This document shows positions 10,928-63,167 of a stretch of 64,000 nt of DNA, in pieces. This DNA comes from Oligoflexia bacterium (GTDB lineage Bacteria; Bdellovibrionota; Bdellovibrionia; JABDDW01). Both the position numbers and the translations under genes were made by a program. The stretch is taken from the NCBI GenBank assembly GCA_023250675.1, contig JAHFAE010000004.1, positions 120 through 64,119 on the forward strand. The letters run 5' to 3'. How positions within the stretch are numbered: position 1 is the stretch's first letter; each line of letters starts with the position of its first letter. The notes beneath the pieces were generated by a model, which was not told where the DNA came from, made no database searches, and was given only the letters and a program-made list of their open reading frames with translations.

Positions 10928-12223
10928 ATGAAAGCATATTATGTTATCGCACTCATCGCCATAGCGCTGCTTTCGGGATCAAGTGTTAAAACGCAAACCG
11001 CCACACTTGGATTGACTGACACCATCACCGCCGCTCGCGTCACCGCAAGAACAATGTTTGCTAGAATCACTGGAACCATTCCTCCAATCGAATCTCAAGA
11101 TCTAACTAACATGGAAAATTTAATTGCGGCGGGTAAGCGATTTGAAGCTGCTAAGATAGCAACCGAAAACGACAATTTCTATAATGTAACTGTTCGAAAC
11201 CTCGCATCAACGATGTCCAATCGTGATTTACAGGTGAATGTTGCTACCAACGACTTCGTGGCAACTGTTATTGGGAATGTTCGCGATCACCTCAATGCAA
11301 AAGAACTTCTCACAGGCGACTACATATATATGGGTGATCCGAGCAAAATAAATGGCCAAGTGCAGACGAATTTTGTGAACGACGTGCTCAATTCAAACAA
11401 TCACTATATTTCTCTAGATAGCATGAAAGTAAATTTGAGGACGGCGTTGAAAAAAGTTCCTCAAATGATTTTTTCTCGTAGTGGAATGGCCGTAAATCAC
11501 CCTGAACCTGCAGGTCTTTTAACTTCACGGGCCTTTGGGTCTTCACATTTAAGGGCGGGAACAAATCGTCGGGCCGTCCAATTCGCATTTAGCCAGTTTC
11601 TTTGCATCAATATTGACCAGATGGCCGATTCTCAAGGGCCAACAAATATGATTTCACAAGACGTCACTCGAATTCCTCAGGGTGATCCAACAATTTTTGA
11701 CAATAAATGCCGAAGTTGCCACACCATGCTTGATGGAATGCGACCGGCCTTTGCACATTTTGATTATATCGATATGGATAATACATTTGTAAGAAATCTC
11801 TTGGTTCTCGATGCAAATACAAACCTGGGCGGAACTCCAGGAAATAACCAAATCAAACTCGATTTACAAACAGGATTGCCACAAAAATATTATTCTAACA
11901 AAACCGTATTTCCTCAAGGCTACGTGGTGTCGAGTACCAATTGGGTCAATAACGCTACGTCGGGCACCGACGCCGACTTTTTTGGATGGCGCGGGAATAC
12001 TACAGGTTCTGGAATCCAAACCTTTGCAAAAATGTTAGCTGATTCCCAAGCCTTCAGCCGCTGTATGGTTAAACGAGTTTTTCAATCGGTTTGCAACCGT
12101 GAACCCGCCGTTGCTGATAAGGATTTGGTCAGTGCGCTAGCTATGAATTTCGAAGAAAACAACTATCGAATTAAGGGATTGTTTGAGCAAGTTTCAGCTC
12201 GCCCAGAATGTTTGGGGAACTAA
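10928..12223 (+). CDS. Exported heme c protein with C-terminal DUF1585 (PSD2)-like domain
   Basis: Signal peptide, CRSCH, C-terminal FSRCMVKRVFQSVCNREP...LAMNFEENNYRIKGLFEQV typical of planctomycete/myxobacterial PSD-family proteins. Confidence 0.7.
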   Translation: MKAYYVIALIAIALLSGSSVKTQTATLGLTDTITAARVTARTMFARITGTIPPIESQDLTNMENLIAAGKRFEAAKIATENDNFYNVTVRNLASTMSNRDLQVNVATNDFVATVIGNVRDHLNAKELLTGDYIYMGDPSKINGQVQTNFVNDVLNSNNHYISLDSMKVNLRTALKKVPQMIFSRSGMAVNHPEPAGLLTSRAFGSSHLRAGTNRRAVQFAFSQFLCINIDQMADSQGPTNMISQDVTRIPQGDPTIFDNKCRSCHTMLDGMRPAFAHFDYIDMDNTFVRNLLVLDANTNLGGTPGNNQIKLDLQTGLPQKYYSNKTVFPQGYVVSSTNWVNNATSGTDADFFGWRGNTTGSGIQTFAKMLADSQAFSRCMVKRVFQSVCNREPAVADKDLVSALAMNFEENNYRIKGLFEQVSARPECLGN

Positions 12224-12224
12224 T

Positions 12225-12905
12225 ATGAAGACACTTTTATTATTGAAGATATTTATGCTGCTCATGATGTTTTCTCTTACGGCATGCTTTAATCTTTCGC
12301 CCCAAACCAGAAGTATGACGTCTAATGATTCATTGCCTGACGACCAACTCTATGATCTGCAAAAAATGGATTTTGCTACTGGAACACCTGTGCAAACAGC
12401 ACAGGTCCTCAATTTTCGCGGCGTCTCAAAATCATTTGAAAATTTAACTGGCTCATCTGTGGTGGATCTTGGAGCGGGCGAGCCAAACGTTACTAACGAT
12501 ATGCCTACTTATTCGTTAAGCGGGGCGCCGGGCTCCATAACAGCTTCGATGCTTTACAATGAAGTAAAATTGGCTGCGGGCCTTTGTTTGCTCACGGTTA
12601 GAAAAGAAAGGGCCATGGCACCAGCTGCAAGAAAGTTTTTTGCTCTTTTAGATTTTACGGCGCCTTCGTCAAATCAAAATATGGTTTCAGCTATTAAAGA
12701 TGCCGCAAATCGGGTGTCTCGAACCATTTGCGGGAGTAATGCTGACTCTGCAACTCAAGACATGGTTCAGACCGAAATCGCATCGTCATTTGCTCCAACT
12801 GATTCTTTGGTCACTGAGGGCACTTATTACTCTAACGTCGTGGACAGTGCTTTAATGGTTTGTACTTCGTTTTTATCAAGTAGTTGCGCTTTGGTGAATA
12901 ACTAG
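12225..12905 (+). CDS. Lipoprotein, partner of the DUF1585-like protein (DUF1595/PSD-like helical C-terminus)
   Basis: ATG 1 nt after the upstream stop (track start 12183 overlaps the previous gene); lipobox SLTAC; ends ALMVCTSFLSSSCALVNN. Confidence 0.6.
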   Translation: MKTLLLLKIFMLLMMFSLTACFNLSPQTRSMTSNDSLPDDQLYDLQKMDFATGTPVQTAQVLNFRGVSKSFENLTGSSVVDLGAGEPNVTNDMPTYSLSGAPGSITASMLYNEVKLAAGLCLLTVRKERAMAPAARKFFALLDFTAPSSNQNMVSAIKDAANRVSRTICGSNADSATQDMVQTEIASSFAPTDSLVTEGTYYSNVVDSALMVCTSFLSSSCALVNN

Positions 12906-12929
12906 AGTTTTTAAAAAGAGGACGTGCTT

Positions 12930-14360
12930 ATGAGCGGTCATCAACATAAAAAACCGGTAACAAGAAGAGATTTCTTATCTTCAGGCCTCATTCAGGGTAC
13001 GGGCTATATGATGTTGCCATCGGTCCTTGATATTTTACTGAATCATGGCATCGCTCGCGCTCAGGCCGTCTGTGCTTCAACGGGCGCAAATAATATGCCT
13101 GCTCTTATTACAATAGACGCTTCCGGTGGAGCTTGCTTTGCTTGGGATATTCCGCCCATGGACGCAGGTAATAATCCATTGTCATCATACAGTCGTCTCG
13201 GTTTAGGAACAGCGCCAACAACAATTCAAACTTTATTTGCCAATGCCATTAAACGATCTACGACGGGAACAATGATTCCCCAAGTTGAGATAACATTAAA
13301 TAGCGCAACCGTTACAACGGCTACGAGTGGCGCCAATGCTACGACTATTTTAGGAAAAACAACTTGCATTCCCATTTGGACTTCTTCTCGAGACGACTCA
13401 TCAACGGTCGCCAACGGAATCCAAACAGCGGCCATAAACGCTGGTCTTAACGGTAAACTTAAACTTTTAGGAACTCGGGATTCTAAAACCGGAGTTGCCG
13501 ACGTAGATGCTTTTGATCTTCCTTCGGTGACGCCTTTTATTCCTCGTTCTATCGACGACATTGTCAATTCTTTGGGTGCGCCGGCCTCAGGAGCCTTTGG
13601 TCGATTGGCTCAAAATAAAAGAGATAGCCTCATGAAAATTATCAAAAATCTCAATTCGAACCAAGCCCGGCAATTAGCAGCTGCCAGTGGCGGACAAACA
13701 GCGGTTGATCTCATTGGCTGCTCCCACGATCAAAATATTGTTATCACTCAAAGTCCTCCCACGGGGGACCCAAGATCAAGTGCTATCGCGCCAATTTGGA
13801 ATATAGCCGCTAACACGGCACCTACAGCGACAAACGCTGTTCGTGCTGGAATGGTTTTAGCTGCCTTGACTGGGAATTCGGGTCCACTAGGAATTGAGAT
13901 GGGTGGTTATGATTACCATGGTCAGGGTCAAACAGTTCAAAACAATCAGCATACGGCTCTTGGAACTTTAATTGGGCAAATTCTTGCCAGTGCGCAAGTT
14001 TTAAATCGAGACGTTTTTATTTATTTAATTACCGATGGTGCTACAGATTCAACAGATTCAGCCACTCCAGCCGCCCCCCAAGGTGATTCTGGTCAGAATG
14101 GTGGCAATATCATGTTTATGTTCAAAGCCAACGGCGCTGTGATTCCAGCGACCAAGCAACAAGTTGGTTACTTTAATGGTTCCCAGCAAAATGATCCTGG
14201 TTCGCCCTCTGAGAACATTCAGATGGGGTCTATTTCAGCACTTGTTAACTATCTTGGCTTTGCCGGTGGGATGACCAAGGTCAACACAGTGACGTCATTA
14301 ATCCCCAGCATGAATTTAAGTAGTGCTCAGATTCTGGCGTTGTTGGCGCTAGGGGTTTAG
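12930..14360 (+). CDS. Tat-exported DUF1501/DUF1552-like protein (family often mislabelled 'general secretion pathway protein GspF')
   Basis: Twin-arginine TRRDFL signal; GGA.FA, GGYDYH, YLITDG and GDSG motifs; RBS AAGAGGA; no PilC/GspF membrane architecture. Confidence 0.65.
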   Translation: MSGHQHKKPVTRRDFLSSGLIQGTGYMMLPSVLDILLNHGIARAQAVCASTGANNMPALITIDASGGACFAWDIPPMDAGNNPLSSYSRLGLGTAPTTIQTLFANAIKRSTTGTMIPQVEITLNSATVTTATSGANATTILGKTTCIPIWTSSRDDSSTVANGIQTAAINAGLNGKLKLLGTRDSKTGVADVDAFDLPSVTPFIPRSIDDIVNSLGAPASGAFGRLAQNKRDSLMKIIKNLNSNQARQLAAASGGQTAVDLIGCSHDQNIVITQSPPTGDPRSSAIAPIWNIAANTAPTATNAVRAGMVLAALTGNSGPLGIEMGGYDYHGQGQTVQNNQHTALGTLIGQILASAQVLNRDVFIYLITDGATDSTDSATPAAPQGDSGQNGGNIMFMFKANGAVIPATKQQVGYFNGSQQNDPGSPSENIQMGSISALVNYLGFAGGMTKVNTVTSLIPSMNLSSAQILALLALGV

Positions 14361-14460
14361 TCGACTTGCCGCGTTTGTTTGTTTGCCAACGTTCCCATTT
14401 AGCCACATCCATGCAACTTTTAATCTCAGTTTCTTAACCAGCAAAACCATATTAGTAGAT

Positions 14461-14498
14461 CGCCGTCCGCTGAGACCCATGAAGGTCTCGCGGCGGCG
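14461..14498. repeat. GC-rich REP-like hairpin, divergent member of the 34330/48481 family
   Basis: CGCCG-T-CCGC-T-GAGACC-CATGAA-GGTCTC-GCGG-CGGCG. Confidence 0.55.
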
Positions 14499-14680
14499 GC
14501 CTCAGCAATTTAGTCGAAGCATTTAGGATACAGATTACCTTACTGTCGTTATTCTTTTTTATTTTCCCCATGTTATTTTGCGCAATCAAGAATTACATTT
14601 TACGGCCTTTTGCTCATAAGATATGCGGTGTTTCTCTAGGATTCCAGTATCTTAGAGAGATTCCATTGCCCTTAGGTGGA

Positions 14681-17600
14681 ATGTTTTTTGCTCAGATTTT
14701 AGGTGTGCAAAAGGTTAATGCCAAAATCTATATTCTTGCGCTTTTGTTAAGCGTCTTCTCTTTTCAAACAAAAGCTATTGAGGAGCCGTCTCAATTTCAA
14801 TTTACAAATTCAGTTTCTGATTTAAGTGACGCCGATTTTTCAAATTACCTGGGTAGCCAAGTTCATAAAGTTTCAGAATTTCAATTTATTCAGCAAGAAG
14901 CACAGAAATTGGGTGTTCGAGCCTGGCTCTTCGGCGGTACTGCTGCTGCCTTTGCCCATTACACCCATTGGGATCTCATGCGCCTGGCTGGCGACCAACG
15001 TTTTCAAGCAAATCGGTTCGACTATCAGTACTTTAATATCTTCAGATCAACTCAAGATCTGGACATCGTCATAGATGGCACCCCTGGCCAAGTGCTAACG
15101 ATAGAGAATCTAATTCGTGAAAAATTTGATTACATGCAGGGGTCACGATCAGCATGGGAGGTCCGGGCCCTTCGATATTCGCGCGGTCAGGTCTCTGACC
15201 CGGGTTTCAAAGAAGCCCTTCTTCGTGATCCAGACTTTCTAAATCAAAATACCGACTCTCATTCCACAGGAATGATTGAAATCACCTCTGTTCCTGAAGG
15301 AGAATTTCCGGTTAAAGACCTACGTGATTGGGATTCAGAATACCCAGTTTTTCTGAAAGACGTCAAACTAGGCAAAATTCACTTTTACTTTTCAAACAAA
15401 CATGAAACCACTTCTCGCTTTAGAGCTGGGAATAACCCCCCTATTTTTTCGGCCATCAGAGTGTTAACTAAGGCATTTCAATTTGAACCGACACTTTGGG
15501 CAGACGATCTTCAGACCATCAAAAAAATAATAGAAGAATTTGATCCTCAAAAAGATCTGACCACGAATTTTGCGAAGAACTGGATCGAAAAAAATGCAAA
15601 AAAACTCATCATGCATGCCGTTAACGTGGAGTATGCGGTTAATCTAATGGAATCTTTGGGGCTCCGACAAAAGCTCATCTCCATCAGCAATCCTGCCGAA
15701 GTTAAATCCATGGGTTGGTGGCTCAATAAAGAACCCTTGCGATCATTCCCCTTGGGCAACGGAGATGGCAAAACTGCTCGAGAACTGGGTATAAAAATAG
15801 TCGCCCATGAAACTTCTGATTTTTTGGCCTATGAATCCCTGACACGAGCCCATACGGGAGACCCAAACGTCTTGATTTCCAGAAAAAACCAACCAGGTGA
15901 ATCCGCCAGTTTTGGGCCAGGCTTTTACACACTAAATGGACGAAAAGGTGCGAAGGAGACAGGATACACGATTCGATTTCGTTTGAATCCCCAAGCCAAA
16001 GAAGGAACTGACTTTGCAGTTGCCGGTGATATGATTCTCATTAAAAATAAATTGGCCATTAAAGTCATTCCACACAGCCTCAACTTAAGCCTTCCCAATT
16101 ATTTTCGAACAATTCAATTAGATACGACTATAAACAAAACTGACCGGGGGGTTGTAGAAAAATATAAACTGATCTTAAAAGCAAAAAAACCATCACAACT
16201 AGAGATTGATGAAACAGAAAAAATAGTACTCGCTGAAATTAAAAAACCGGTGCTTAACTATACTCTCCTTAAAGAGTGGTTTAGTATTATGGGTTTCAAT
16301 ACGAATTCAAGAATAGATAAAGGTATTAATTCTCGGCTTCAACGAGAATTAGAGCTTGAAGAACCCAATCAGGAATTTCTAAAAATAATTCTCCATCTTA
16401 ATAAAGCGGGTTTTAACATGGTCTTACCCTTAACTGTAAGAATGGCTGTCGCGACTCAAATGCATTCAAACCGAGACTGGGGGGACCTCAAAGTTTTGAT
16501 CACAGAATCGAAATCTCTAAACCCTTCTCGACAGGATTTGGATGCTAGTGCCAAAATTGTGATTCGCGAACTCAACAAGAAAAATCCTAACATTGCAGTA
16601 TTGGATCTTTGGGAACATATCCCTGGGACTAAAGGGAATGAGCAAGTGGCTCGGATTTTTACCGAAAAGATAAAAAGCGAAATCGAAAAATCCAACCCCA
16701 ACTCCTATTTGATCTGGAGTTGGTTAGGTATCGAAGATAGGCCCCATGCTGTCGTGGAGACAATATTAAAGAAAATCAACGATCAACTTCGATCAAATCA
16801 GCCAGAAGTGACAGTGTTGTCGGCCCTTATGGATAGCTTTCCCAGCCGTTATGTATTTGAAAACTCCCCTGCAATTCAGGAAATTCGAAAATTTGTAACT
16901 CCACCAAAGTATTTTGAAATCATAAGTAGGTACCATTCGTACTTTCGAGCTTGGTCGCCTTTTAACGAAACCCTCAAAGCCATGATTGACTTGGACAAAC
17001 TCCAACTTACTTCAGCAGATGTCCAAGCCATTTCAAAAATCATAAGTCATGAAATTGAAAAATTGCTTGTGAATGATCACTACCTGGCCGATGCCGGCTC
17101 TTCAAGTTCTTTGATTCATGAGTGGGTCAAATTACCCGTGAGTCTCAACTTTCCTCATCTCGCATTAAAAGCTCTAAGACTTCCCAATATTCGCGGCGCC
17201 CATATTTTTTCACATTCGTTTCTTAATCAAAGTGATGATTCCATCTGGTTGAAGGATCTTAGATGGATTCCCCTTATTTTGGGTCAGAGACCCCCAGACC
17301 CCGAAAAGCTCCTTGAGAAACCCGAAGTTATCAATCTTGTATTGAGTATCTCCATGCTTTATAAATCTGAAGAAGTTAAAAAAATCATGCACCACCCTTC
17401 AATTCAAAATCTTTTTTCAACAATATATCATAATTCAGAATTCGATCATCTCGCTCTCTCCATTTTAGAACTTAAGGAGCGCAATGAAATGCCTGGAATA
17501 GGCTGGTCTCTGGCCATTGAACGAATGTTACGTGGTGAGAAGCGCGAAGCATTAATCTCTGTGGCCATGGAGGTTAGAAATGACGATATTTTGAAACGCG

Positions 17601-17983
17601 ATGCCGTTCAAAAAATCATAGCCGAAGAGGATTTTTGGTTAAAAATCAGAGGAGATAAAAAAAAGGACTCAGAACTCCAACTATCCTTTGGTAACGAAGA
17701 CGAAGACACTGGGAGTTTTTATGGTACGGTCTTAGTGAACCCAGAACTGCAATTGCGATTTTTGGAGGAAATAAATAAGCCTCTAAACGAATCCAATCAA
17801 GAATATTGGCGCCGTGCCATTGAAAATGCCCATATAACTGATCCAAGAGTCAAACGTGCCTTTCTACGATTAAGAATTCATGCGACCGGTGAAACTCAAT
17901 CTTGGGCAAGGGGTGCTTATAAAAAACTCTTTGGAAACCTACCCGAGAATTGCGCTGACCTATTAGCTAGTATCAATCAATAA
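14681..17983 (+). CDS. Large signal-peptide protein: nucleotidyltransferase (CCA/PAP-like) + ADP-ribosyltransferase-like domain + helical repeats
   Basis: Likely start ATG 14681 (AGGTGGA upstream) or GTG 14705; signal KIYILALLLSVFSFQTKA; WLFGG...DLDIVIDG; FLKDVKLGKI...RF...PP..AIRVL..AFQF; AHET...FGPGFYT; repeated I..EL.K..PN..LL..W. Confidence 0.6.
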   Translation: MFFAQILGVQKVNAKIYILALLLSVFSFQTKAIEEPSQFQFTNSVSDLSDADFSNYLGSQVHKVSEFQFIQQEAQKLGVRAWLFGGTAAAFAHYTHWDLMRLAGDQRFQANRFDYQYFNIFRSTQDLDIVIDGTPGQVLTIENLIREKFDYMQGSRSAWEVRALRYSRGQVSDPGFKEALLRDPDFLNQNTDSHSTGMIEITSVPEGEFPVKDLRDWDSEYPVFLKDVKLGKIHFYFSNKHETTSRFRAGNNPPIFSAIRVLTKAFQFEPTLWADDLQTIKKIIEEFDPQKDLTTNFAKNWIEKNAKKLIMHAVNVEYAVNLMESLGLRQKLISISNPAEVKSMGWWLNKEPLRSFPLGNGDGKTARELGIKIVAHETSDFLAYESLTRAHTGDPNVLISRKNQPGESASFGPGFYTLNGRKGAKETGYTIRFRLNPQAKEGTDFAVAGDMILIKNKLAIKVIPHSLNLSLPNYFRTIQLDTTINKTDRGVVEKYKLILKAKKPSQLEIDETEKIVLAEIKKPVLNYTLLKEWFSIMGFNTNSRIDKGINSRLQRELELEEPNQEFLKIILHLNKAGFNMVLPLTVRMAVATQMHSNRDWGDLKVLITESKSLNPSRQDLDASAKIVIRELNKKNPNIAVLDLWEHIPGTKGNEQVARIFTEKIKSEIEKSNPNSYLIWSWLGIEDRPHAVVETILKKINDQLRSNQPEVTVLSALMDSFPSRYVFENSPAIQEIRKFVTPPKYFEIISRYHSYFRAWSPFNETLKAMIDLDKLQLTSADVQAISKIISHEIEKLLVNDHYLADAGSSSSLIHEWVKLPVSLNFPHLALKALRLPNIRGAHIFSHSFLNQSDDSIWLKDLRWIPLILGQRPPDPEKLLEKPEVINLVLSISMLYKSEEVKKIMHHPSIQNLFSTIYHNSEFDHLALSILELKERNEMPGIGWSLAIERMLRGEKREALISVAMEVRNDDILKRDAVQKIIAEEDFWLKIRGDKKKDSELQLSFGNEDEDTGSFYGTVLVNPELQLRFLEEINKPLNESNQEYWRRAIENAHITDPRVKRAFLRLRIHATGETQSWARGAYKKLFGNLPENCADLLASINQ

Positions 17984-18105
17984 GCATTGGCCTTAAGCAT
18001 TGGTTCGCTCATGGCGTGCGTGATGATAGCTTGGCAACCCGCCTCATTGGAAATTTGTTCTATTTCATCCGCTTTTGGCCGGATAACGGACCTCAAATTG
18101 AAATA

Positions 18106-18133
18106 AAAGCAGTTCCAGGGTTGGAACTGCTTT
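18106..18133. terminator. Perfect 12-bp hairpin between convergent units, probable bidirectional terminator
   Basis: AAAGCAGTTCCA-GGGT-TGGAACTGCTTT. Confidence 0.6.
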
Positions 18134-18441
18134 GCATTAACTCCATTTTCCGCGGTCTGCTTGGTGCAAACCAATGGGCTTATGGAATAAACCCTCCTAT
18201 CAAAAGTAGGGGGCAGATATGAACAACAACCAAGTTGTTGTCTCTATCGAAAAAAAATGTAGAAAACTGAAGTTTTGGATTCGTTGCACGTTTGTGATTA
18301 TATCCATAATTAGGTTTCTACATTGGTTCTGGACCTTGATCCAATCGTTGGGGCTTTCTGTTGTGGGTGGCTCTTATTGCATTTACATGGAAGGCACTAA
18401 GCGACCGCGGCCCCTTCAACGACTTTCTAAATGGACAAACA

Positions 18442-18867
18442 CTATTGAGGCAAGACGTAATTGTTGACCCAATCGATCAAATTCTGAATCTGGGTGCTGC
18501 TATAGCGATTGCCGCCATGATACTCGCTCATAGGGTGAGTGATAAGAGTTTTATTCGTTGATTTTTGACCCAGAGAATATGAAATGCAGAGATTATTTTT
18601 TTGATCGATTGCCGTAGGATCAACAGAATGAATCTTAAAACGGGTCTTGTATTGCGCATATTCAACACTACTGCCATGGCAAGTCAGGCAGTTTTGATTT
18701 AAGTAGACTTGAGTAAACACATTGGTTTGAAAATTTGAAACGTCGGTATCTGTAGGCTTACAATTAAATGCTCCCACCGTATCTGATGAATTTTCCACCG
18801 CACAGCCAAATAAATTAATCAAAATAGTTAATATAAATGTCGTTTTCTTAATACTCTTTGTTTCCAT
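18442..18867 (-). CDS. Monoheme c-type cytochrome lipoprotein
   Basis: Lipobox LFGC; CLTCH; distal HP..HGG motif; ends ..LIDWVN. Confidence 0.7.
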   Translation of the reverse strand: METKSIKKTTFILTILINLFGCAVENSSDTVGAFNCKPTDTDVSNFQTNVFTQVYLNQNCLTCHGSSVEYAQYKTRFKIHSVDPTAIDQKNNLCISYSLGQKSTNKTLITHPMSEYHGGNRYSSTQIQNLIDWVNNYVLPQ

Positions 18868-18957
18868 TTTTCTCTATAGCCTGTCCAATTACTAACTTCT
18901 GCCCACTACTCTTTTTCTTCAGCTCTCTGATATTCGATACTTAAGTTTTTCTCACGG

Positions 18958-19209
18958 TCAATTACATCCACAGCCGCCGCCGCCCCCCCCAAAACCACCC
19001 GACGAACCCTCTCGGGCGTTGAACATGTGTTGCTTGCCAATTTCTTCTGTGGGGTAAGACAAAACTTTCATGCTGTGTTTAGCTAAAACTTCTCGCTCAA
19101 ATGGCGCCACATTTTTTTTAAATAGAGAGCACCCTGAAAGGGCAAGAACAAAAAACACCAAAATAGTGCCACTAAACAATTTCAGAAAGTCTAAAATTTT
19201 AGAGTTCAT
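18958..19209 (-). CDS. DUF4266 lipoprotein
   Basis: Likely start ATG 19209; lipobox ALSGC; VAPFEREVLA...HMFNAREGSSGGFGGGGGGCGCN. Confidence 0.85.
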   Translation of the reverse strand: MNSKILDFLKLFSGTILVFFVLALSGCSLFKKNVAPFEREVLAKHSMKVLSYPTEEIGKQHMFNAREGSSGGFGGGGGGCGCN

Positions 19210-19297
19210 TAGAGTTGCCTCTGAATCTTGCCACTCATTGCAGCTTGATATTGTCCAAAAAATACTCAAATTTTATGACTCCCGATCCTATACCCAC

Positions 19298-20518
19298 CTA
19301 AAAATTTCTCAAGATTCCCAATGAAAATACCTGTGCCGTCAAACCATAGAGTTTATCATCGTTTGGATTTGACGGAACACCAATATCGGTAAAATTAGTA
19401 TACTTAAGCATATAGTACTCAACCCTTCCGTAAATCTCCCACCCATAGGATAATTTCAAAACAGGGCGAATGCCGACAAGTCCAGTCCAATACTCTGACA
19501 AAGTTTTATTACCAGTCAAAAAGGGGCTTAAACTCGTTTGATCATACTTATCTTTGTAAAAACTTGACTGAGTTTGGCGGTAATATCGAAAGTCAAGGCT
19601 CATCGAAAAATCTTTACTAAAATCCCGCGTCAATTGGGGTTCTAGCGTAATACTTCGAACGCCCCAATTATCCCAGTATAGCCGAACCGCTGTTGAGGTG
19701 GCCATGGACGAACCCAAAGCATAGTAAATATATTTTAGAGTCACATCTTGTTTTGCCCGCAAATTTGGAACGTTTTCTGAAATGGCAATCACACTCCCAT
19801 CAGTTTGACCTATGCGCGCTGCTCGGTAGGGACTAGCTAAATATCCCGACTGAATCGTATACTCATATAAAATTTGCATCAGACTAATTTTATTTAAAAC
19901 TTGAGTAATTCCCACTGACATAGAACCGGTTTTCATCACTTGATCAAAACCTTTGTCACTGGAGGATTGCACATGGTCGTTCCCCATGGATAAACCCAAA
20001 TCCACCGTCGTGTTCTTATCAAAAAAATCTCGAGAGCCACCAATAGAATAGGTCTGCGAATGGTAGTCGTTTTCGTCACTGACGACAACGCCGACAGTCA
20101 AGGCTCCACCTTCGAGATTAGCCCCAAGGCTTCCGCTCACTTCACGTCTCGTATCTGAAATCTTTCCTTGGCTAGCCCAACTCCTCACGTCAGCAGAACT
20201 GCTTGTCACAATGTCCATGGCATAACCAGCACCGACAGTAACATCGTCATTTAAGATACTCGCCTTGGCATTGACGTGGGGAGAAATTACTTGAGTCTCT
20301 GAGTCATCATAGTATCGCGCAATAAAATCAAAATTGCTTTCTTGAGCTTCACAGATGTTTGAAAATGGTAATTGGACCAAGGTAAGACCAAATAAAAGAC
20401 CTACTACAAATTGCTCCACAAAAGATTTTTTCTGATTTCGAAGAATCTTGATTATCAGAAACAAGGTATCAAAGAAAAATTGGGGGGCTCGACGAAAAAT
20501 CAGCGGGGACAAAATCAT
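19298..20518 (-). CDS. DUF3570 outer-membrane beta-barrel
   Basis: YYDD..TQVISP, DIVTSSS, SDENDYHS, GYLASPYR, ENVPNLR, RLYWDNWGV.S, FRYYRQ motifs; adjacent to DUF4266. Confidence 0.85.
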   Translation of the reverse strand: MILSPLIFRRAPQFFFDTLFLIIKILRNQKKSFVEQFVVGLLFGLTLVQLPFSNICEAQESNFDFIARYYDDSETQVISPHVNAKASILNDDVTVGAGYAMDIVTSSSADVRSWASQGKISDTRREVSGSLGANLEGGALTVGVVVSDENDYHSQTYSIGGSRDFFDKNTTVDLGLSMGNDHVQSSSDKGFDQVMKTGSMSVGITQVLNKISLMQILYEYTIQSGYLASPYRAARIGQTDGSVIAISENVPNLRAKQDVTLKYIYYALGSSMATSTAVRLYWDNWGVRSITLEPQLTRDFSKDFSMSLDFRYYRQTQSSFYKDKYDQTSLSPFLTGNKTLSEYWTGLVGIRPVLKLSYGWEIYGRVEYYMLKYTNFTDIGVPSNPNDDKLYGLTAQVFSLGILRNF

Positions 20519-49511: not shown

Positions 49512-51695
49512 GTGAAATGTGCTGCCTTTGTCTTATTGATGTTTTTCCCTGTCTTGGGCTTTGCACTAGACGTTGTGTATGACATCAATGTCGATTATCA
49601 AACGATGAACTTCACTGGCAAGAACGTCAAAGGTATTACTTTAAGCAACGCTGGCGAAAGTGGGGAAATTCCGGGACCAACTTTAGAGTTCACTGAAGGC
49701 GACAACGCCGTCATAACAATTCATAATAATTTGAATGAGGAGACCTCTATCCATTGGCATGGATTGCTTGTTCCCAATGACCAGGACGGTGTTCCACATA
49801 TTACAAATAAACCAATTAAAGGTCACAGCTCTTACACTTATCGTTTTCCAATAAAGCAAAATGGAACGTACTGGTACCATTCCCATACAAGTCTTCAAGA
49901 ACAAAAAGGTGTTTACGGACCCATTGTTATTCATGCGAAAAATGAAGTTAAGTATGATTACGACCAAGTCGTGCTATTTTCGGATTGGACCAATGAAAAT
50001 CCAAACGAAGTTATGCGGGACTTGAAAACTGATCCTGAGTATCAGCAACAATGTAAAGACACCCAACGTACTTGGTCTAAAGACTTAAGAGAGCACACTG
50101 TTAATGCTCGTTTAAAATCTGAATGGAATCGCATGGGCCCTATGGATGTTGCTGACGTTTGCTATTCAGGTAATGGCGCCTTTTTAATAAACGGTCGTCG
50201 CCAATCAAAATTTGAAAGTATTCTACCTGGGCAAACGGCTAGGCTTCGTTTTATTAACGCTGCTACATCAACTTACTTTCACGTCGCATTTGGTAAACAG
50301 CCGATTCAAGTTATCTCTGCCGACGGGAAAGACGTTGTTCCAGTAGCCGTGAATGGCTTCAAAATAGGAAGCGCGGAGACCTATGATGTTCTTGTCACAA
50401 TGCCAAAAGATATTTCTGTTGAGTTGAGGGCCACGAGTAATGACGTAACTGGTCACACATCTGTATTCTTCGGTACGGGCCCCATGGAAAAAGCCCCGGA
50501 TGTGCCAAAGCCTCCCCCCTACATGGACATGAGCGGCGGAAGTGGGAGCCACAATTGTAAGCCTAATGAACATTGGGATGACAAAATGAAGATGTGTATG
50601 CCAAACAATACAAATCTTCAGGCAACAAATTACTCCCAAATACTGAAAATGGATGATGATTGCACTCCGGGTGAACCTGGCTGCGGAGACGACTTAGTTC
50701 CATTAAATTATGGAATGCTCAAATCGGTTGGAGCAACAACTCTTGATCCTCGTCCTACAAAGGAAATCGAACTTGATCTCGACGGAAACATGAGGACGTA
50801 TGTTTGGTCATTTAATAAGAAAGTTTTCGGCGATTCAGAAGAAATAATAATTCAAAAAGGCTCAAATGTTAGAATTAAGTTTGTCAACAAAACTATGATG
50901 GCACACCCAATCCATATTCACGGGCACTTTTTTAGACTGTTAAATGGACAAGAGGATTTTAGCCCGTTGAAACATACGGTCGATATTGCACCGATGCAAA
51001 GTACTATGATTGAATTTTACGCCAATATCGCAGGAAAATGGCTCATGCACTGTCATATCGGGCCTCATATGATAGCAGGAATGGATTTGGTTTTTAACAT
51101 TCAAAGTTCAGGATCAAGCCAGACTATAGTAACTAATGTGATAACATCTTTACCCGACTCCCCGAGTAAGACGATGTCTGATATGTCGGGTAAGCAATGG
51201 TTTTTGGCCGGCAAAGTCGGCGCTACAAATTATAGGTCGGAAGCTGAGTTTAAGGCCATTGAAAAGGACTGGGAATTAATGCTTAGGGCCGAGTACGAAC
51301 CAAGTGACAGTAAAACTCGCATTCGCAGCGAAGTGACTCAGAACACGAGCCTCAATACGGGAATTTATGCGGGTGCAGAAGTCGATACCAAAAAAGACCA
51401 TCTAAACCCCGGAGCGCGAAAAACAATTACAACGGGAGAGATTGGAATCAAATACCGAACCCCAGGCATGATCAATATTACCGCTGGTGTTACAACCGAT
51501 GGCAAACTTTCTTTTTCTGCGGAGAAAGAATTGGCTCTTTTTAAGAAAACCTCCGTCAATCTCATGTTTGAAAGAAAATATGGTATTACAGAGTGGCACG
51601 CTTTTGTTGAAAGGCGAATAAAAAAACGCTGGCTATTAAGAGGCGGTCCCTCAGAGCGCGGCGGTTTTGAAGGCGGAATACAATTTAGGCCCTGA
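49512..51695 (+). CDS. CopA-type multicopper oxidase with C-terminal beta-barrel-like (CopB-like) extension
   Basis: HWHG, WYHSH, HPIHIHGH, HCHIGPHM copper ligands; Sec-type signal without RR; ~190-aa C-terminal amphipathic strands ending GGIQFRP. Confidence 0.88.
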   Translation: MKCAAFVLLMFFPVLGFALDVVYDINVDYQTMNFTGKNVKGITLSNAGESGEIPGPTLEFTEGDNAVITIHNNLNEETSIHWHGLLVPNDQDGVPHITNKPIKGHSSYTYRFPIKQNGTYWYHSHTSLQEQKGVYGPIVIHAKNEVKYDYDQVVLFSDWTNENPNEVMRDLKTDPEYQQQCKDTQRTWSKDLREHTVNARLKSEWNRMGPMDVADVCYSGNGAFLINGRRQSKFESILPGQTARLRFINAATSTYFHVAFGKQPIQVISADGKDVVPVAVNGFKIGSAETYDVLVTMPKDISVELRATSNDVTGHTSVFFGTGPMEKAPDVPKPPPYMDMSGGSGSHNCKPNEHWDDKMKMCMPNNTNLQATNYSQILKMDDDCTPGEPGCGDDLVPLNYGMLKSVGATTLDPRPTKEIELDLDGNMRTYVWSFNKKVFGDSEEIIIQKGSNVRIKFVNKTMMAHPIHIHGHFFRLLNGQEDFSPLKHTVDIAPMQSTMIEFYANIAGKWLMHCHIGPHMIAGMDLVFNIQSSGSSQTIVTNVITSLPDSPSKTMSDMSGKQWFLAGKVGATNYRSEAEFKAIEKDWELMLRAEYEPSDSKTRIRSEVTQNTSLNTGIYAGAEVDTKKDHLNPGARKTITTGEIGIKYRTPGMINITAGVTTDGKLSFSAEKELALFKKTSVNLMFERKYGITEWHAFVERRIKKRWLLRGGPSERGGFEGGIQFRP

Positions 51696-54792: not shown

Positions 54793-56883
54793 ATGAAGTT
54801 GTTGATTCATGTGAATTCTAAACTGAATCTAGGAATGATCTTTGCTCTCATTTCAGTTGGAGGTTGCCAGAGTCAAGACCTGGCCAGCAAATTGGTGGCA
54901 GCTATCAATTCCACTTCCCAAAATAATCATTCTGACGATATTCCTGGTTCGGGTACGGGTTCACATCCAATAGCCACACTTCGTCTTGCACCTCATATTG
55001 AATTTCCTAATAATCGAGATTGTAACAACCCCCTATTTTGGGATGGCGGCACTCTTCATGTTTTTAATTCAGTGAGTGGAGAAGTTTCAAAAGCCTCGGG
55101 TCCAAATGTTTCAGAACTCACAAGTGATGGAGCTTCCCCATTTTCTAATGGTCCCGGTGGATGGATGGAATCGGTCATTAAAGCTGATGATGGAATTCTC
55201 TACGGCTGGTACCATCAAGAACCTTTTGTGGGATGCAACTTACAACGGGCACCTCTTATTGGTGCGGCCATGTCTTTTGATAACGGAAGCACATGGCGAG
55301 ATCTTGGAATCATCATTCGACCCCGATCAGGGACTACTGATTGCAGTACCCAAAACCCATCAACAGCAGGAGGAAACGGCGATTTTTCAGTTTTATTAGA
55401 TGGGAATAATGAAAATCTATATTTCTACTTTTCAAATTACGCAGGCGATATTTCAGAACAAGGAATTTCAGTGGCCCGCATGAATTGGAGTGCCCGTAAA
55501 AATCCAGTAGGAAAAATTCAAAAATGGCACAATGGATCTTGGGGTGAACCCGGACTTGAAGGTCTTGTCACTCCACTTTTCAATGACGCCCTGAAATTTG
55601 ATTGGATGAAAACTGAGAATAATGGGTATTGGGGCCCATCCATTCATTGGAATAACTATCTTAATCAATACATTATTCTCATGAACAGATCCCGAGGAGC
55701 TAACTACTTAACCGAGGGTCTCTATGCTACCTATTCTAAGGATCTCTCAGATCCCAACTCATGGACCGTACCTGATAAAATTCAAATGAAAAATGGTTTT
55801 TACGATTGGTACCCCCAAGTTGTTGGCGATTCAAGTATTCAGGGCACTGATAAACTCGCAGGTCAGACTTCAAGATTTTTCGTCAGTGGCCGATCTGATT
55901 ACGAAATTACTTTTTCTTACCCAGATCAAATGAATGGACCTTTTTTCGGAAACCCTTCTTTTATTCCAGGTTCCATTGAAGCAGAAAATTTTGACACAGG
56001 TACAGAAGGTGTAGCCTTTCACGAAAAATCTCAAGAAAACCAAGGTGGGGAGTTTCGTGCAACACCTGTTGATATTGGGAGAAGTACCGAGGGCGGATAT
56101 GCCGTCGGTGGAATCGATGATGGCGAGTGGCTCAAATACACCGTCAACATCACTGCTAGTGGGACCTACGCCCTTTGGGCTCGAGTGGCCACGCCCAACT
56201 TAAACTCAAGGTTTCATATGGAGATCGATGGAATTAACGTTTCAGGAACCATTACAGTTCCCAACACAGGCGAATGGCAATCCTGGCAAACCGTTGCAAG
56301 TAGAACATTTAATCTAACTAGTGGAACCCACGCTCTAAAAATTGTTTTTGATGGGGGTGGTTTCAATCTAGACAATTTTAAAATTATTGCGCATTGGGGA
56401 GTCACACCGCCAGATAATGCTCCAAGTTTTTTTGGGAATACCCAACCCCAACTGCCCGGCCGCATTGAAGCCGAAAATTTTGATGGAGGAGGAGAAGGAT
56501 TTGCCTACCACGATGTCTCACCCACAAATCTCACAGGTATTTATCGACAGACCGATGTGGACATCGGTGATTGCAGCGAAGGTGGCTATAACGTGGGCTG
56601 GGCTGAGTCTGGTGAATGGCTCAACTATTCTGCTAAAGTTACCGCAGTTGGAAGTTACACTATCAGCGCACGGGTTGCGACCATTGGCAACACAAGTAAA
56701 TTTCATGTTGAAGTTGATGGTAAAAATGTGACCGGTACCATTAACGTGCCAAACACCGGGGATTGGCAACAATGGCACACAGTCACAAGCAAATCATTTA
56801 GTTTATCTGAAGGGGAACACACCTTCAGATTCGTCTTCGACTCCGGTGGATTTAATTTTAATTACTTTGATTTAGTGCAATAG
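54793..56883 (+). CDS. Lipoprotein: Asp-box beta-propeller glycosidase-like domain + two CBM6-like modules
   Basis: Lipobox VGGC; SFDNGSTW Asp-box; GDFSV; two repeats of IEAENFD.G.EG.A.H...GY.VG....GEWL.Y..V...G.Y....RVA...TG.WQ.W. Confidence 0.75.
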   Translation: MKLLIHVNSKLNLGMIFALISVGGCQSQDLASKLVAAINSTSQNNHSDDIPGSGTGSHPIATLRLAPHIEFPNNRDCNNPLFWDGGTLHVFNSVSGEVSKASGPNVSELTSDGASPFSNGPGGWMESVIKADDGILYGWYHQEPFVGCNLQRAPLIGAAMSFDNGSTWRDLGIIIRPRSGTTDCSTQNPSTAGGNGDFSVLLDGNNENLYFYFSNYAGDISEQGISVARMNWSARKNPVGKIQKWHNGSWGEPGLEGLVTPLFNDALKFDWMKTENNGYWGPSIHWNNYLNQYIILMNRSRGANYLTEGLYATYSKDLSDPNSWTVPDKIQMKNGFYDWYPQVVGDSSIQGTDKLAGQTSRFFVSGRSDYEITFSYPDQMNGPFFGNPSFIPGSIEAENFDTGTEGVAFHEKSQENQGGEFRATPVDIGRSTEGGYAVGGIDDGEWLKYTVNITASGTYALWARVATPNLNSRFHMEIDGINVSGTITVPNTGEWQSWQTVASRTFNLTSGTHALKIVFDGGGFNLDNFKIIAHWGVTPPDNAPSFFGNTQPQLPGRIEAENFDGGGEGFAYHDVSPTNLTGIYRQTDVDIGDCSEGGYNVGWAESGEWLNYSAKVTAVGSYTISARVATIGNTSKFHVEVDGKNVTGTINVPNTGDWQQWHTVTSKSFSLSEGEHTFRFVFDSGGFNFNYFDLVQ

Positions 56884-61475: not shown

Positions 61476-63167
61476 TTACACGCTTAATTTTTTCAAACCG
61501 ATTCTATCGATGAGAAGATCAATCAAAGTTCTAGTTACAAAAACTGCGGTAAACATAGATGTAAAAATACCGGTGACAAGTGTGACCGCAAATCCTCGAA
61601 CCGGCCCTGTTCCATAGTGCATCAAAATGAGACTTGTGATGGCAGAACATATATTGGCATCAAAAATGGCCCAAAAGGCCCGATCATAGCCAAGTTCAAT
61701 TGCGGTGCGATAACTGGCTCCATGTCGTAACTCTTCGCGTATTCGCTCAAAAATAATGACGTTTGCATCAACGGCCATTCCAATTGTTAACGCAATACCG
61801 GCAATGCCTGGAAGAGTGAGTGTGGCATCAAGGGCCGTTAAAACTGAGAGAATTAAAAAGACGTTAATAAGCAGTGCGATGTCAGCCAAGAGCCCTGCAC
61901 CTTTGTAATAAAAAAGCATAAATAAAATAACGAGAATGGCACCAATGGCGCTGGCTTTTTTGCCCTTAGCAATGCTGTCGAGACCCATAGTCGGACCTAC
62001 GGTTCTTTCTTCTAATTGCTCCAGCGCTGCAGGGAGTGCACCGGCACGCAACGCCATGCTTATCCCTTTTGCTTCGTCCATCTGGGCTTGATAATTTCGA
62101 CCTCCGCCCAAGGTGATTTGTGCATTCCCACCTGCAATTTTTGATCTAATATTGGGAGCTGAGTAGACCACATTGTCTAAAACGATAGCCAAATTTCGCC
62201 CCACATTATCACCCGTTAATTGAGCAAATTTTGCTGCTCCCGACGAGTTAAAGGAAAGCGAAACGTAAGGCGAATTGTCCTCGTGATTTATTCCCACGTA
62301 AGCATCTTTTAAACTTTCTCCTGCAATGGGAACATCGGATTTCAAGAGATAGGGTACTTTTCCAGCCTCAAGATTAATGGCACTCTGGTTTTTTTCAAAT
62401 AATATGACAGTACCTTCAGGAATTTTCCCTTTCACTGCTTCATTAAGTTTTTTGATATACTCACTGTACTTCATGCCTCGAAGTTGAAAACCGCCTGATT
62501 TTTCTGCCTCAGAAACAATGGTTGCCACCGAGCCTGCCGCTTGGGTGTTATCAACAAGATGAAATTCTAAACGGGCCGTACGATTAATGAGATCTTTGGC
62601 CTTGGCTGCATCTTGAATCCCAGGCAATTGGATCAAAATACGATTATCACCTTGCGCCGCAATGCTAGGTTCACTAACGCCGAATTCATCGATTCGATTT
62701 CTAATGGTCTCGATGCTTTGTTCAATAGTTCGCTTTTTTAGGTCTGTGAGGTAGGGGTCACTGTATCTAGTTGTAAATTCCTGACCACTCCCTTGAGTTA
62801 AAAGATTGGGGCCGTAGCTCTTCGTGAGAAGATCACGAACGGCCTGCTCTTCTTCAGGTCTTGTCAATTTAACTTGAATTTCAAGGCTATCAGAGGGGGT
62901 TTTCAACCTTGAAGCCATTACATCAATATTTTTCTCTTTGGCAATTGAAACGAGGGTTTCGGCTAGGCGATCCGTACTCTCACGAAGTACTGACGGAACA
63001 TCAACGCCCATTACAAGATAAAGACCTCCTTGAATATCGAGTCCGTATCGAATTTTATCTTTGGTAGGCCACCACGAAATAGTGGCTAAATTGGGAACAA
63101 AAAACATGATAGCGGTAAAAAGGACAAAGGCAATGGTCCCAATTCTCCAAGATATTCCGCTTTTCAT
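61476..63167 (-). CDS. secD: Protein translocase subunit SecD
   Basis: GLDIQGG, RNRIDEFGVSEP, LRAGALP, TLTLPGIAG..LTIGMAVDANVIIFERIREE. Confidence 0.97.
   Translation of the reverse strand: MKSGISWRIGTIAFVLFTAIMFFVPNLATISWWPTKDKIRYGLDIQGGLYLVMGVDVPSVLRESTDRLAETLVSIAKEKNIDVMASRLKTPSDSLEIQVKLTRPEEEQAVRDLLTKSYGPNLLTQGSGQEFTTRYSDPYLTDLKKRTIEQSIETIRNRIDEFGVSEPSIAAQGDNRILIQLPGIQDAAKAKDLINRTARLEFHLVDNTQAAGSVATIVSEAEKSGGFQLRGMKYSEYIKKLNEAVKGKIPEGTVILFEKNQSAINLEAGKVPYLLKSDVPIAGESLKDAYVGINHEDNSPYVSLSFNSSGAAKFAQLTGDNVGRNLAIVLDNVVYSAPNIRSKIAGGNAQITLGGGRNYQAQMDEAKGISMALRAGALPAALEQLEERTVGPTMGLDSIAKGKKASAIGAILVILFMLFYYKGAGLLADIALLINVFLILSVLTALDATLTLPGIAGIALTIGMAVDANVIIFERIREELRHGASYRTAIELGYDRAFWAIFDANICSAITSLILMHYGTGPVRGFAVTLVTGIFTSMFTAVFVTRTLIDLLIDRIGLKKLSV

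Follow-up and report, generated by a model that had tools for sequence, protein, structure and literature searches.

The DNA examined here was a 64,000-nt stretch, referred to below as the window, of contig JAHFAE010000004.1 from the Oligoflexia bacterium assembly GCA_023250675.1. On its forward strand, between positions 14681 and 17983, lies a gene for a predicted secreted protein of 1100 amino acids, in which a nucleotidyltransferase (NTase) domain related to class II CCA-adding enzymes and poly(A) polymerases is joined to a second, beta-rich domain with the probable fold of a PARP-like ADP-ribosyltransferase (ART). An earlier note on this DNA had drawn attention to the fusion. What it missed is the family behind it: the protein has hundreds of paralogues, in which a conserved head is followed by a hypervariable tail and, at the C-terminus, a cysteine tag. 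From one end to the other, the architecture consists of a signal peptide, a head of ~480 residues (the NTase and the PARP-like domain), a helical linker, a fast-evolving alpha-helical tail, and an amphipathic tag with a lone cysteine. Residues are numbered throughout from the ATG at 14570, as in the earlier note. The following features were mapped.

14681 to 17983, + strand: coding sequence, 1100 residues from the ATG at 14681, stop codon at 17981-17983.
14681 to 14776, + strand: Sec-type signal peptide (signal peptidase I), cleavage predicted after QTKA69, without a lipobox.
14852 to 15694, + strand: Pol-beta-type NTase head and helical neck, residues ~95-375, with a predicted local distance difference test score (pLDDT) >90.
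14933 to 14938, + strand: G122-G123, the hG[GS] motif that closes strand 1, following model strand 35-39; invariant in 120/120 members.
15056 to 15064, + strand: D163-L-D165, the metal-binding DxD of strand 2, at the start of model strand 83-87; invariant.
15158 to 15160, + strand: E197 in W-E-V-R, candidate third carboxylate, strand 3 (model strand 115-118).
15698 to 16081, + strand: beta-rich second domain, residues ~377-504, PARP-like ART fold probable.
15806 to 15814, + strand: H413-E-T415, versus H-G-[ST] of PARPs, closing the domain's first strand (model strand 328-333).
15914 to 15931, + strand: G449-P-G451-F-Y453-T, versus 'G-K-G-I-Y-F' of PARP1 and 'GFY' of Tox-ART-HYD2; Y453 at nt 15926.
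16010 to 16015, + strand: D481-F482, best candidate for the third (acidic) ART residue, just before model strand 400-403; invariant.
16082 to 16294, + strand: family-conserved helical linker (…SDRGxxEKxK…LxEWFxLP…), conserved to ~residue 573; model helices 426-491.
16295 to 17950, + strand: orphan C-terminal half, predicted helical, residues 576-1127.
17951 to 17980, + strand: C-terminal single-cysteine tag, C1128-ADLLASINQ; sole cysteine of the mature protein.

The longest open reading frame of the locus, as given by the list of frames, spans 14570..17983 (+) and encodes 1137 residues from its first ATG. The true start is most likely the ATG at 14681 (M38) or the GTG at 14705, rather than the ATG at 14570, because homologue N-termini carry 40-60 residues ahead of the conserved part. 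In the window protein, this part starts near residue 90, and the ATG at 14681 lies ~51 residues ahead of the conserved module; the GTG at 14705 is an equally possible start. Both yield a Sec-type signal peptide. By direct reading of the sequence, it is made of an n-region (MFFAQILGV)QKVNAK, an h-region IYILALLLSVFSF and a c-region QTKA/IEE, where the slash marks the predicted cleavage, and no cysteine lies close to that site. A comparable hydrophobic N-terminus was found in 96 of 119 homologues, which makes export a property of the family; the others mostly seem to be 5'-truncated gene calls, beginning just past the hydrophobic stretch. The cleavable-looking signal peptide described earlier is thus real, and homologue N-termini speak for the starts at 14681 or 14705 and not for one downstream of it. 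Export of the window protein via Sec is supported by these sequence features.

The N-terminal part of the protein was modelled with AlphaFold2 (residues 83-610, from 120 sequences), with a pLDDT of 90.3 and a predicted template modelling score (pTM) of 0.89. When the model was compared with the PDB using Foldseek, ranks 1 to 34 were occupied only by class II CCA-, CC- and A-adding enzymes and the poly(A) polymerase I of E. coli (E 1.8e-4 to 2.4e-2, probability 0.99-1.0, 273-311 aligned columns, ~285). These include 4wby, 3h39, 1vfg, 3wfo and 3aql, and the next match had an E of 0.34. No other family was matched by the model of the first domain, and with GG and DxD invariant as well, the assignment to class II CCA/poly(A)-polymerase-type NTases proposed from sequence motifs was borne out. 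In CCA enzymes, GG and DxD are separated by ~10-12 residues. Here the spacer, already remarked upon as unusually long, is 39 residues, owing to a conserved helical insert that is visible in the model. In strand 3, W196, E197 and R199 are all invariant in an alignment of 54 members (A3), and in the second alignment used, of 120 members, W196 and R199 are invariant and E197 is kept in >=90%. E197 may be the third carboxylate.

Relatedness to CCA enzymes was much harder to detect at the sequence level. Neither the query nor 54 homologues matched PF01743 or PF12627 at E<=1, and NCBIfam gave no match. Against E. coli CCA alone, hhalign misaligned the NTase (P 0.25). Against a 100-sequence profile of E. 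coli-type CCA enzymes, the alignment was non-significant (P 0.088) and colinear over 192 columns. It pairs GG with GG, D163/D165 with D21/D23 of E. coli CCA, K-D250-L with R-R-D of motif B, of which only the Asp (D250) is kept in this provisional alignment, and '…SRF…NPPI…IRVLTKAFQ' with 'AFGEDPLRVLRVARF' of motif D. The latter pairing had been proposed in the earlier note. It is reproduced in this colinear, non-significant alignment, and the templating E-D is not kept in it.

Compared with the enzymes of PF01743 (class II CCA-, A- and CC-adding enzymes, poly(A) polymerase I), the window protein has the same Pol-beta NTase head, where hG[G] and DxD sit on the strands predicted for them, and the same helical neck. 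It differs in the helical insert between GG and DxD, in having RRD reduced to D250 and G-x-N-P-P instead of EDxxR, and in carrying a beta-rich domain in place of the body and tail. PF01743 enzymes are cytoplasmic, whereas the family of the window protein is predicted to be exported. We conclude that the first domain is a very divergent class-II-type NTase, and a catalytically plausible one.

The second domain had a pLDDT of 90-98 in context and of 75.9 when modelled alone, which indicates that it leans on the NTase. For the isolated domain, Foldseek gave no significant match in the PDB; the best one was the ART domain of PARP-1 (E 0.44, probability 0.51, TM-score over the query (TMq) 0.40). 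PARP-1, PARP-2 and PARP-10 were the only PDB matches with TMq >0.3, and non-ART matches had TM-scores <0.26. In BFVD, a library of viral structures, the top match was a 127-residue phage 'PARP catalytic domain-containing protein' (E 0.01, probability 1.0, TM-scores 0.44/0.48), and giant-virus PARP and NAD+ ART proteins were among those with the better TM-scores.

The motifs of PARP1 read 'H-G-S … F-G-K-G-I-Y … E-Y-I-V-Y'. The second domain presents its elements in the order of the H-Y-E clade of ARTs: H413-E-T ends strand 1, a helix and a short strand follow, then come G-x-G-F-Y453, and finally D481-F482, which opens a strand. H413 does not vary in any of the alignments; T415 is invariant in A3 and kept in >=90% of the 120 members, and E414 in >=90%. 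G449, G451 and Y453 are invariant, with Y453 on model strand 369-374. Sixteen residues of this ~130-residue domain are invariant, H413, Y453 and D481 included. From motif and topology in the model, D481 may be the equivalent of E988 of PARP1 (E988-Y989). The third ART residue had initially been placed at D487, in 'G-D-M-ILIKN'. This choice was not upheld, as D487 is not conserved, and N493 and D481-F482 are the invariant positions instead.

Profile methods were less favourable. The hhalign comparison with PARP1 alone, for which the sequence used was 100% identical to a PDB-derived entry, was not significant; it sets the G449-Y453 stretch against FGKGIY of PARP1. A PDB profile search with the second domain returned nothing relevant. 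Among 30 isolated second domains searched against Pfam at E<=10, one matched DUF3990 (E 0.029), which belongs to the ADP-ribosyl clan, and no other relevant line came up. The DUF3990 match fails correction for multiple testing.

The proposal of an H-Y-E clade ART therefore stands in part: H413 and Y453 are invariant and PARPs top two structure libraries, but the matches are weak and the profile comparisons non-significant. We consider the ART fold probable, with ART activity, as read from conserved residues and the model, carrying less confidence than the fold. With the H-Y-E ARTs (PARP, PF00644; Tox-ART-PARP, HYD1 and HYD2, PMC3482391), the likeness lies in how three elements are ordered and placed: the His of strand 1, the GxG-F-Y of strand 3, and an acidic residue that opens a strand. 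The Tox-ART-PARP signature is 'HG[ST], Y, K, E' and that of Tox-ART-HYD2 'H, D, GFY, W, R' (Zhang et al. 2012, PMC3482391), and the window protein recalls the Tox-ART HYD families in its 'GFY' and in having an Asp as candidate third residue. Unlike PARPs, the window family has H-E-T rather than H-G-[ST] and lacks the long insert that precedes the catalytic Glu. Unlike the known H-Y-E ARTs, its domain is fused to, and packed on, an NTase, and unlike the ART toxin families it comes without an immunity gene, RHS, HINT, or trafficking domains of type VI or type VII secretion systems.

The same results can be read with only the NTase being catalytic. The second domain would then be no ART: it would bind the substrate or a nucleotide cofactor, and replace the tRNA-binding body and tail. 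It takes the exact place of the substrate-binding domains of CCA enzymes and packs rigidly against the NTase, every sequence-based test against ARTs fails, and the structural matches to ARTs are borderline (TM 0.40-0.48). However, it is PARP-type ARTs that come first in both libraries, with the non-ART PDB matches below a TM-score of 0.26, and the His, GxGxY and the acidic strand-start residue are invariant and in ART order. Sixteen invariant residues in 130 also exceed the usual needs of a binding platform. We regard a single catalytic site as rather unlikely.

Homologues were sought among 5.8 billion proteins, and 401 relatives were found, so that the family has at least 401 members. The best 120, with lengths of 626-1411 residues, all align to the query over residues ~94-573 alone, with ~50% identity. 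No match for the whole protein or its parts was found in Pfam, NCBIfam, PADLOC, PHROGs or PDB sequences (phmmer/hmmsearch), and literature searches for the architecture or the family found nothing, in agreement with the suggestion that the architecture is undescribed. The sole Pfam line for the query, RexA at E 0.06, was discarded as noise.

A scan of one genome per GTDB species gave 147 coding loci. The taxon statement rests on the best ~80 of them: the 78 loci returned all come from MAGs (metagenome-assembled genomes) labelled Bacteriovoracaceae, Pseudobdellovibrionaceae, Bdellovibrionales, Bdellovibrionia or Bdellovibrionota, or from older 'Deltaproteobacteria/Proteobacteria bacterium' bins. 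This spread agrees with the lineage, Bdellovibrionota, of the window. Counts of 9, 17 and 19 separate loci were obtained for individual MAGs, some of the copies being arranged in tandem, four at most; the window itself holds one copy, and no second copy was found in it. Between paralogues of one MAG, the heads are 66-85% identical, with a median of 63% across the set. The query is only 51-59% identical to all others in this region, and is a divergent member of the family by sequence.

Despite this divergence, G122-G123, D163/D165, H413 and Y453, whose coordinates were all confirmed, are invariant in the 120 members, ~50-55% identical to the query, which is far above chance. GG/DxD and H/Y are thus conserved among homologues at every position named. 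This bears on whether the enzyme folds could be relics, in a structural, adhesive or binding protein whose function would reside in the helical repeat tail. Long repeat arrays are indeed found in the tails of many members. But the canonical catalytic residues GG, DxD, H and Y do not vary among 120 members otherwise ~50-60% identical, and conservation is highest in the head, while tails drift freely. We hold a dead scaffold to be very improbable.

The tail of the query, by comparison, is an orphan. For its last 562 residues, a search of 1.84 billion representative proteins found no relative, and the C-terminal half matches nothing in Pfam, PADLOC or PHROGs. It contains about four degenerate copies, of weak internal similarity, of the linker unit '…I..EI.K..PN..LL.EW..LP…', a helical element found behind the head in every member. 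In many homologues, the tail is instead an array of a family-specific helical repeat of 30 residues, 'D..IAqfVLsqPeWknhPElvekLi', with 18 copies at most (for instance in P0080, residues 574-1200, and in P0078 and P0031). Within one MAG, tails are 30-42% identical with differing repeat numbers, or unrelated, and tandem paralogues likewise differ in repeat number, with tails 30-42% identical. Profile labels on these tails called for caution. Ank, RasGEF, PTS_EIIA_2, RapZ_C and DUF4116, first read as eukaryote-like or decoy domains, were rejected: no single stretch passed alone, ~40 profile positions were covered, and the scores were sums of weak matches on the 30-residue repeat. A precomputed INCENP label on homologue tails was rejected likewise, as summed partial matches on the same repeat. 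An FGE-sulfatase domain in homologue tails was confirmed as real (1.5e-26, full length), and by sequence score HEAT_2 (1.2e-12) is probably real too.

At its very end, '…ENCADLLASINQ', the window protein carries C1128, the only cysteine past the signal peptide. In 96 of the 120 members, the distance between the last cysteine and the C-terminus is 7-16 residues, and exactly 10 in 45 of them, the cysteine being part of a motif C-[VIL]-x3-L-x3-[LF]-[KR]; the median cysteine count of the mature protein is 1. This tag is common to members whose tails are otherwise unrelated (homologues P0002-P0120). The segment does not form a CaaX box, and it is too short and too polar to anchor the protein in a membrane. 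From its sequence and position, it could be a signal for sorting, for tethering by a disulfide, or for release. No other protein of the window has such a tag. At related loci, similar ends were seen in a few secreted proteins outside the family (L026 162-1529, L016 10-717, L005 708-2780), in numbers too small to be informative.

The gene is flanked by two hairpins.

14457 to 14502, + strand: GC-rich hairpin between the upstream gene and the head/tail gene, fold energy -29.4 kcal/mol, z -3.7.
18106 to 18133, no strand assigned: hairpin with a 12-bp stem between two convergent genes, from the terminator scan.

The first has a perfect stem, is GC-rich within a genome of 42% GC, and occurs in a single copy in the window. 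It is likely a terminator or a dispersed REP-like intergenic repeat, the latter because in contigs of three groundwater runs the match is confined to ~14450-14503 and is lost to either side of it. The second is likely a bidirectional terminator, the next gene downstream being a convergent cytochrome c gene (18442-18867, -). Hairpins on both sides and a convergent neighbour suggest that gene 14681-17983 is monocistronic and transcribed on its own.

The organism is uncultured and its source is a groundwater metagenome; the search for RNA-seq evidence yielded only three low-coverage DNA runs. Independent single-run contigs from groundwater metagenomes cover 15806-16955 and 16222-16697 with zero mismatches. 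Since they cross the junction between head and tail, this junction is not an assembly chimera. In run X1, a second contig variant was seen at 18101-18260, an intergenic region 3' of the gene, with 11 positions and 2 indels changed, which points to strain heterogeneity in the population.

Upstream lies a three-gene cluster (10928-14360, +), which encodes a PSD2/DUF1585-domain protein bearing a signal peptide and a C-x-x-C-H haem motif, a small lipoprotein-like frame, and a 478-residue protein with a twin-arginine signal, TRRDFLSSG, and no Pfam match. It recalls the DUF1585/DUF1501-type periplasmic pairs of unknown function. The convergent cluster downstream (18442-20518, -) comprises the small cytochrome c, a DUF4266 lipoprotein and a DUF3570 protein of outer-membrane type. 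These neighbours are envelope or periplasmic proteins, and none is conserved beside family members elsewhere. No immunity gene is adjacent in the window, as had been noticed before, and no small conserved neighbour was found across the 78 related loci. Further away, a multicopper oxidase (49512-51695), SecD (61476-63167) and a protein with two CBM6/CBM35 modules (54793-56883) were recognisable in the window; scans for tRNA genes and for Rfam families at the gathering threshold returned none in the 64 kb.

In nine related loci from different MAGs (L023, L028, L035, L038, L050, L054, L060, L070, L047), the family gene adjoins one for a lipoprotein-like protein of 1200-1650 residues that combines several AAA+ (Clp-like) modules with an FtsH-type HEAGH metallopeptidase at its C-terminus. 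That gene lies directly upstream on the same strand in L023 (346-4044), L035 (1492-5790), L038 (926-5959), L050 (1493-5803) and L054 (1617-5819), and on the opposite strand in L028 (1304-5587). It may encode a dedicated processing or unfolding partner for one subgroup. No AAA+/FtsH-type protease gene is present in the window.

Such surroundings would suit a family at work in the periplasm or on the surface of its own producer, for instance modifying the envelope, or processing or scavenging nucleotides and NAD+ from lysed cells. The signal is for Sec only, with neither a linked delivery system nor an immunity gene; the neighbours (the protein with the twin-arginine signal, cytochrome c, DUF4266/DUF3570) belong to the envelope or periplasm, and the AAA+/FtsH-type protease is the neighbour in nine related loci. 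Housekeeping of this kind does not, however, account for 10-20 or more paralogues per genome, nor for hypervariable tails on a conserved catalytic head, a pattern of conflict or effector proteins, and the family was not seen outside one phylum. It is, in our estimate, an unlikely explanation.

Several known systems resemble the family in one respect or another. Among Legionella effectors, the SidE family combines a mono-ART with a phosphodiesterase, and DrrA/SidM an NTase-fold AMPylase with a guanine nucleotide exchange factor. They are likewise exported, couple an ART and/or an NTase-fold transferase to targeting regions, and form large paralogous repertoires. They have no sequence relation or detected structural relation to the window protein, bear a Dot/Icm signal instead of a Sec signal, and act on eukaryotic targets. 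Polymorphic toxin systems (PMC3482391) are also modular, with one constant and one hypervariable part, and many copies, some in tandem. Here the polarity is reversed, the constant N-terminal part being enzymatic and the variable part a non-enzymatic helical tail, and unlike these systems the family has neither immunity genes nor cassette arrays. Toxins of the MenT/AbiEii type are Pol-beta-fold NTases that poison cells by adding nucleotides to the acceptor ends of tRNA (PMC10435456). The analogy is functional only. They belong to a different NTase subfamily and are small, cytoplasmic and encoded next to their antitoxins, whereas the window protein is exported and multidomain, and has no antitoxin.

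The combination of a conserved catalytic head with hypervariable tails, in many copies, argues by analogy for a conflict or effector family. We favour, with a confidence that stands midway between doubt and assent, the reading that the window gene encodes a Sec-exported modular enzyme or effector of a multigene family specific to Bdellovibrionota, which acts in another cell. The NTase fold of the head, the conservation pattern, and the restriction of the family to one phylum together with its expansion there are established by the results above. Judging by the conserved residues and the model, both sites are likely to be catalytically competent. The rigid packing of the 528-residue modelled head (pTM 0.89) and the strict co-occurrence of the two domains suggest a single composite enzyme rather than two independent warheads. 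After export, the protein would be released or passed to another cell, most plausibly prey, where the head would use NTP and NAD+ to modify a macromolecule covalently. The target of the NTase would be, as a first guess, an RNA 3' end or a tRNA; RNA as a substrate can only be a guess for an NTase that has neither the EDxxR templating motif nor the tRNA-binding body and tail. The ART-like site might act on RNA or protein, again a guess. The variable tail would set the specificity for target or location, and the cysteine tag would serve in sorting, tethering or release. No immunity protein would be needed, because the producer would export the protein unfolded through Sec.

A number of points weigh against such an effector. 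The only signal present is for Sec, which leads to the periplasm, and no delivery route into other cells was seen in the window. Little NTP or NAD+ is available outside cells. The predatory habit of these MAG lineages is assumed, from taxonomy. As to the enzyme itself, the templating motif EDxxR is missing ('ED' aligns to A/G within '…RAGNNPP…', in the provisional alignment at P 0.088), and so are the body and tail that hold tRNA, the neck being followed in the model by the beta-rich domain, with strands at 328-417. The ART fold lacks statistical security, with an E of 0.44 in the PDB. With hhalign, only the FGxGxY region aligned to a 103-sequence PARP profile (P 0.22), and Pfam gave no ART match in 54 members, nor, apart from the weak DUF3990 line, in the 30 isolated domains at E<=10.

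A bolder version of the effector reading, which we consider distinctly improbable, would have the PARP-like NAD+ site and the CCA-type NTP site, held in fixed geometry, act sequentially on one nucleic-acid end or residue. The head would for example ADP-ribosylate or cap an RNA end, and then extend or NMPylate it; to our knowledge, such chemistry has not been described for any toxin. The family would at the same time travel by a new predator-to-prey delivery or tethering route that reads the cysteine tag, with the 30-residue repeat tails as interchangeable targeting modules.

The folds themselves are known. Their fusion, the exported setting, the polarity of constant enzyme and variable tail, and the cysteine tag are undescribed in Pfam, NCBIfam, the PDB and the literature searched. 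The family would add to the class II CCA/poly(A) polymerase NTases a branch that is exported, devoid of the templating motif and endowed with a long insert in the active-site hairpin, and probably also a very divergent ART of H-Y-D type. The lone C-terminal cysteine tag, which recurs in members with unrelated tails, could represent a new signal for sorting or tethering. As far as we know, how Bdellovibrio-like predators disable prey from outside the prey cytoplasm is largely obscure, and classical injection systems are lacking in them. A family restricted to one phylum, with dozens of copies per genome, which keeps its nucleotide-transfer head invariant while its tails evolve freely, agrees with the picture of a diversifying arsenal of effectors and offers a concrete candidate for a role in predation, of relevance both to bacterial predation and to toxin enzymology.

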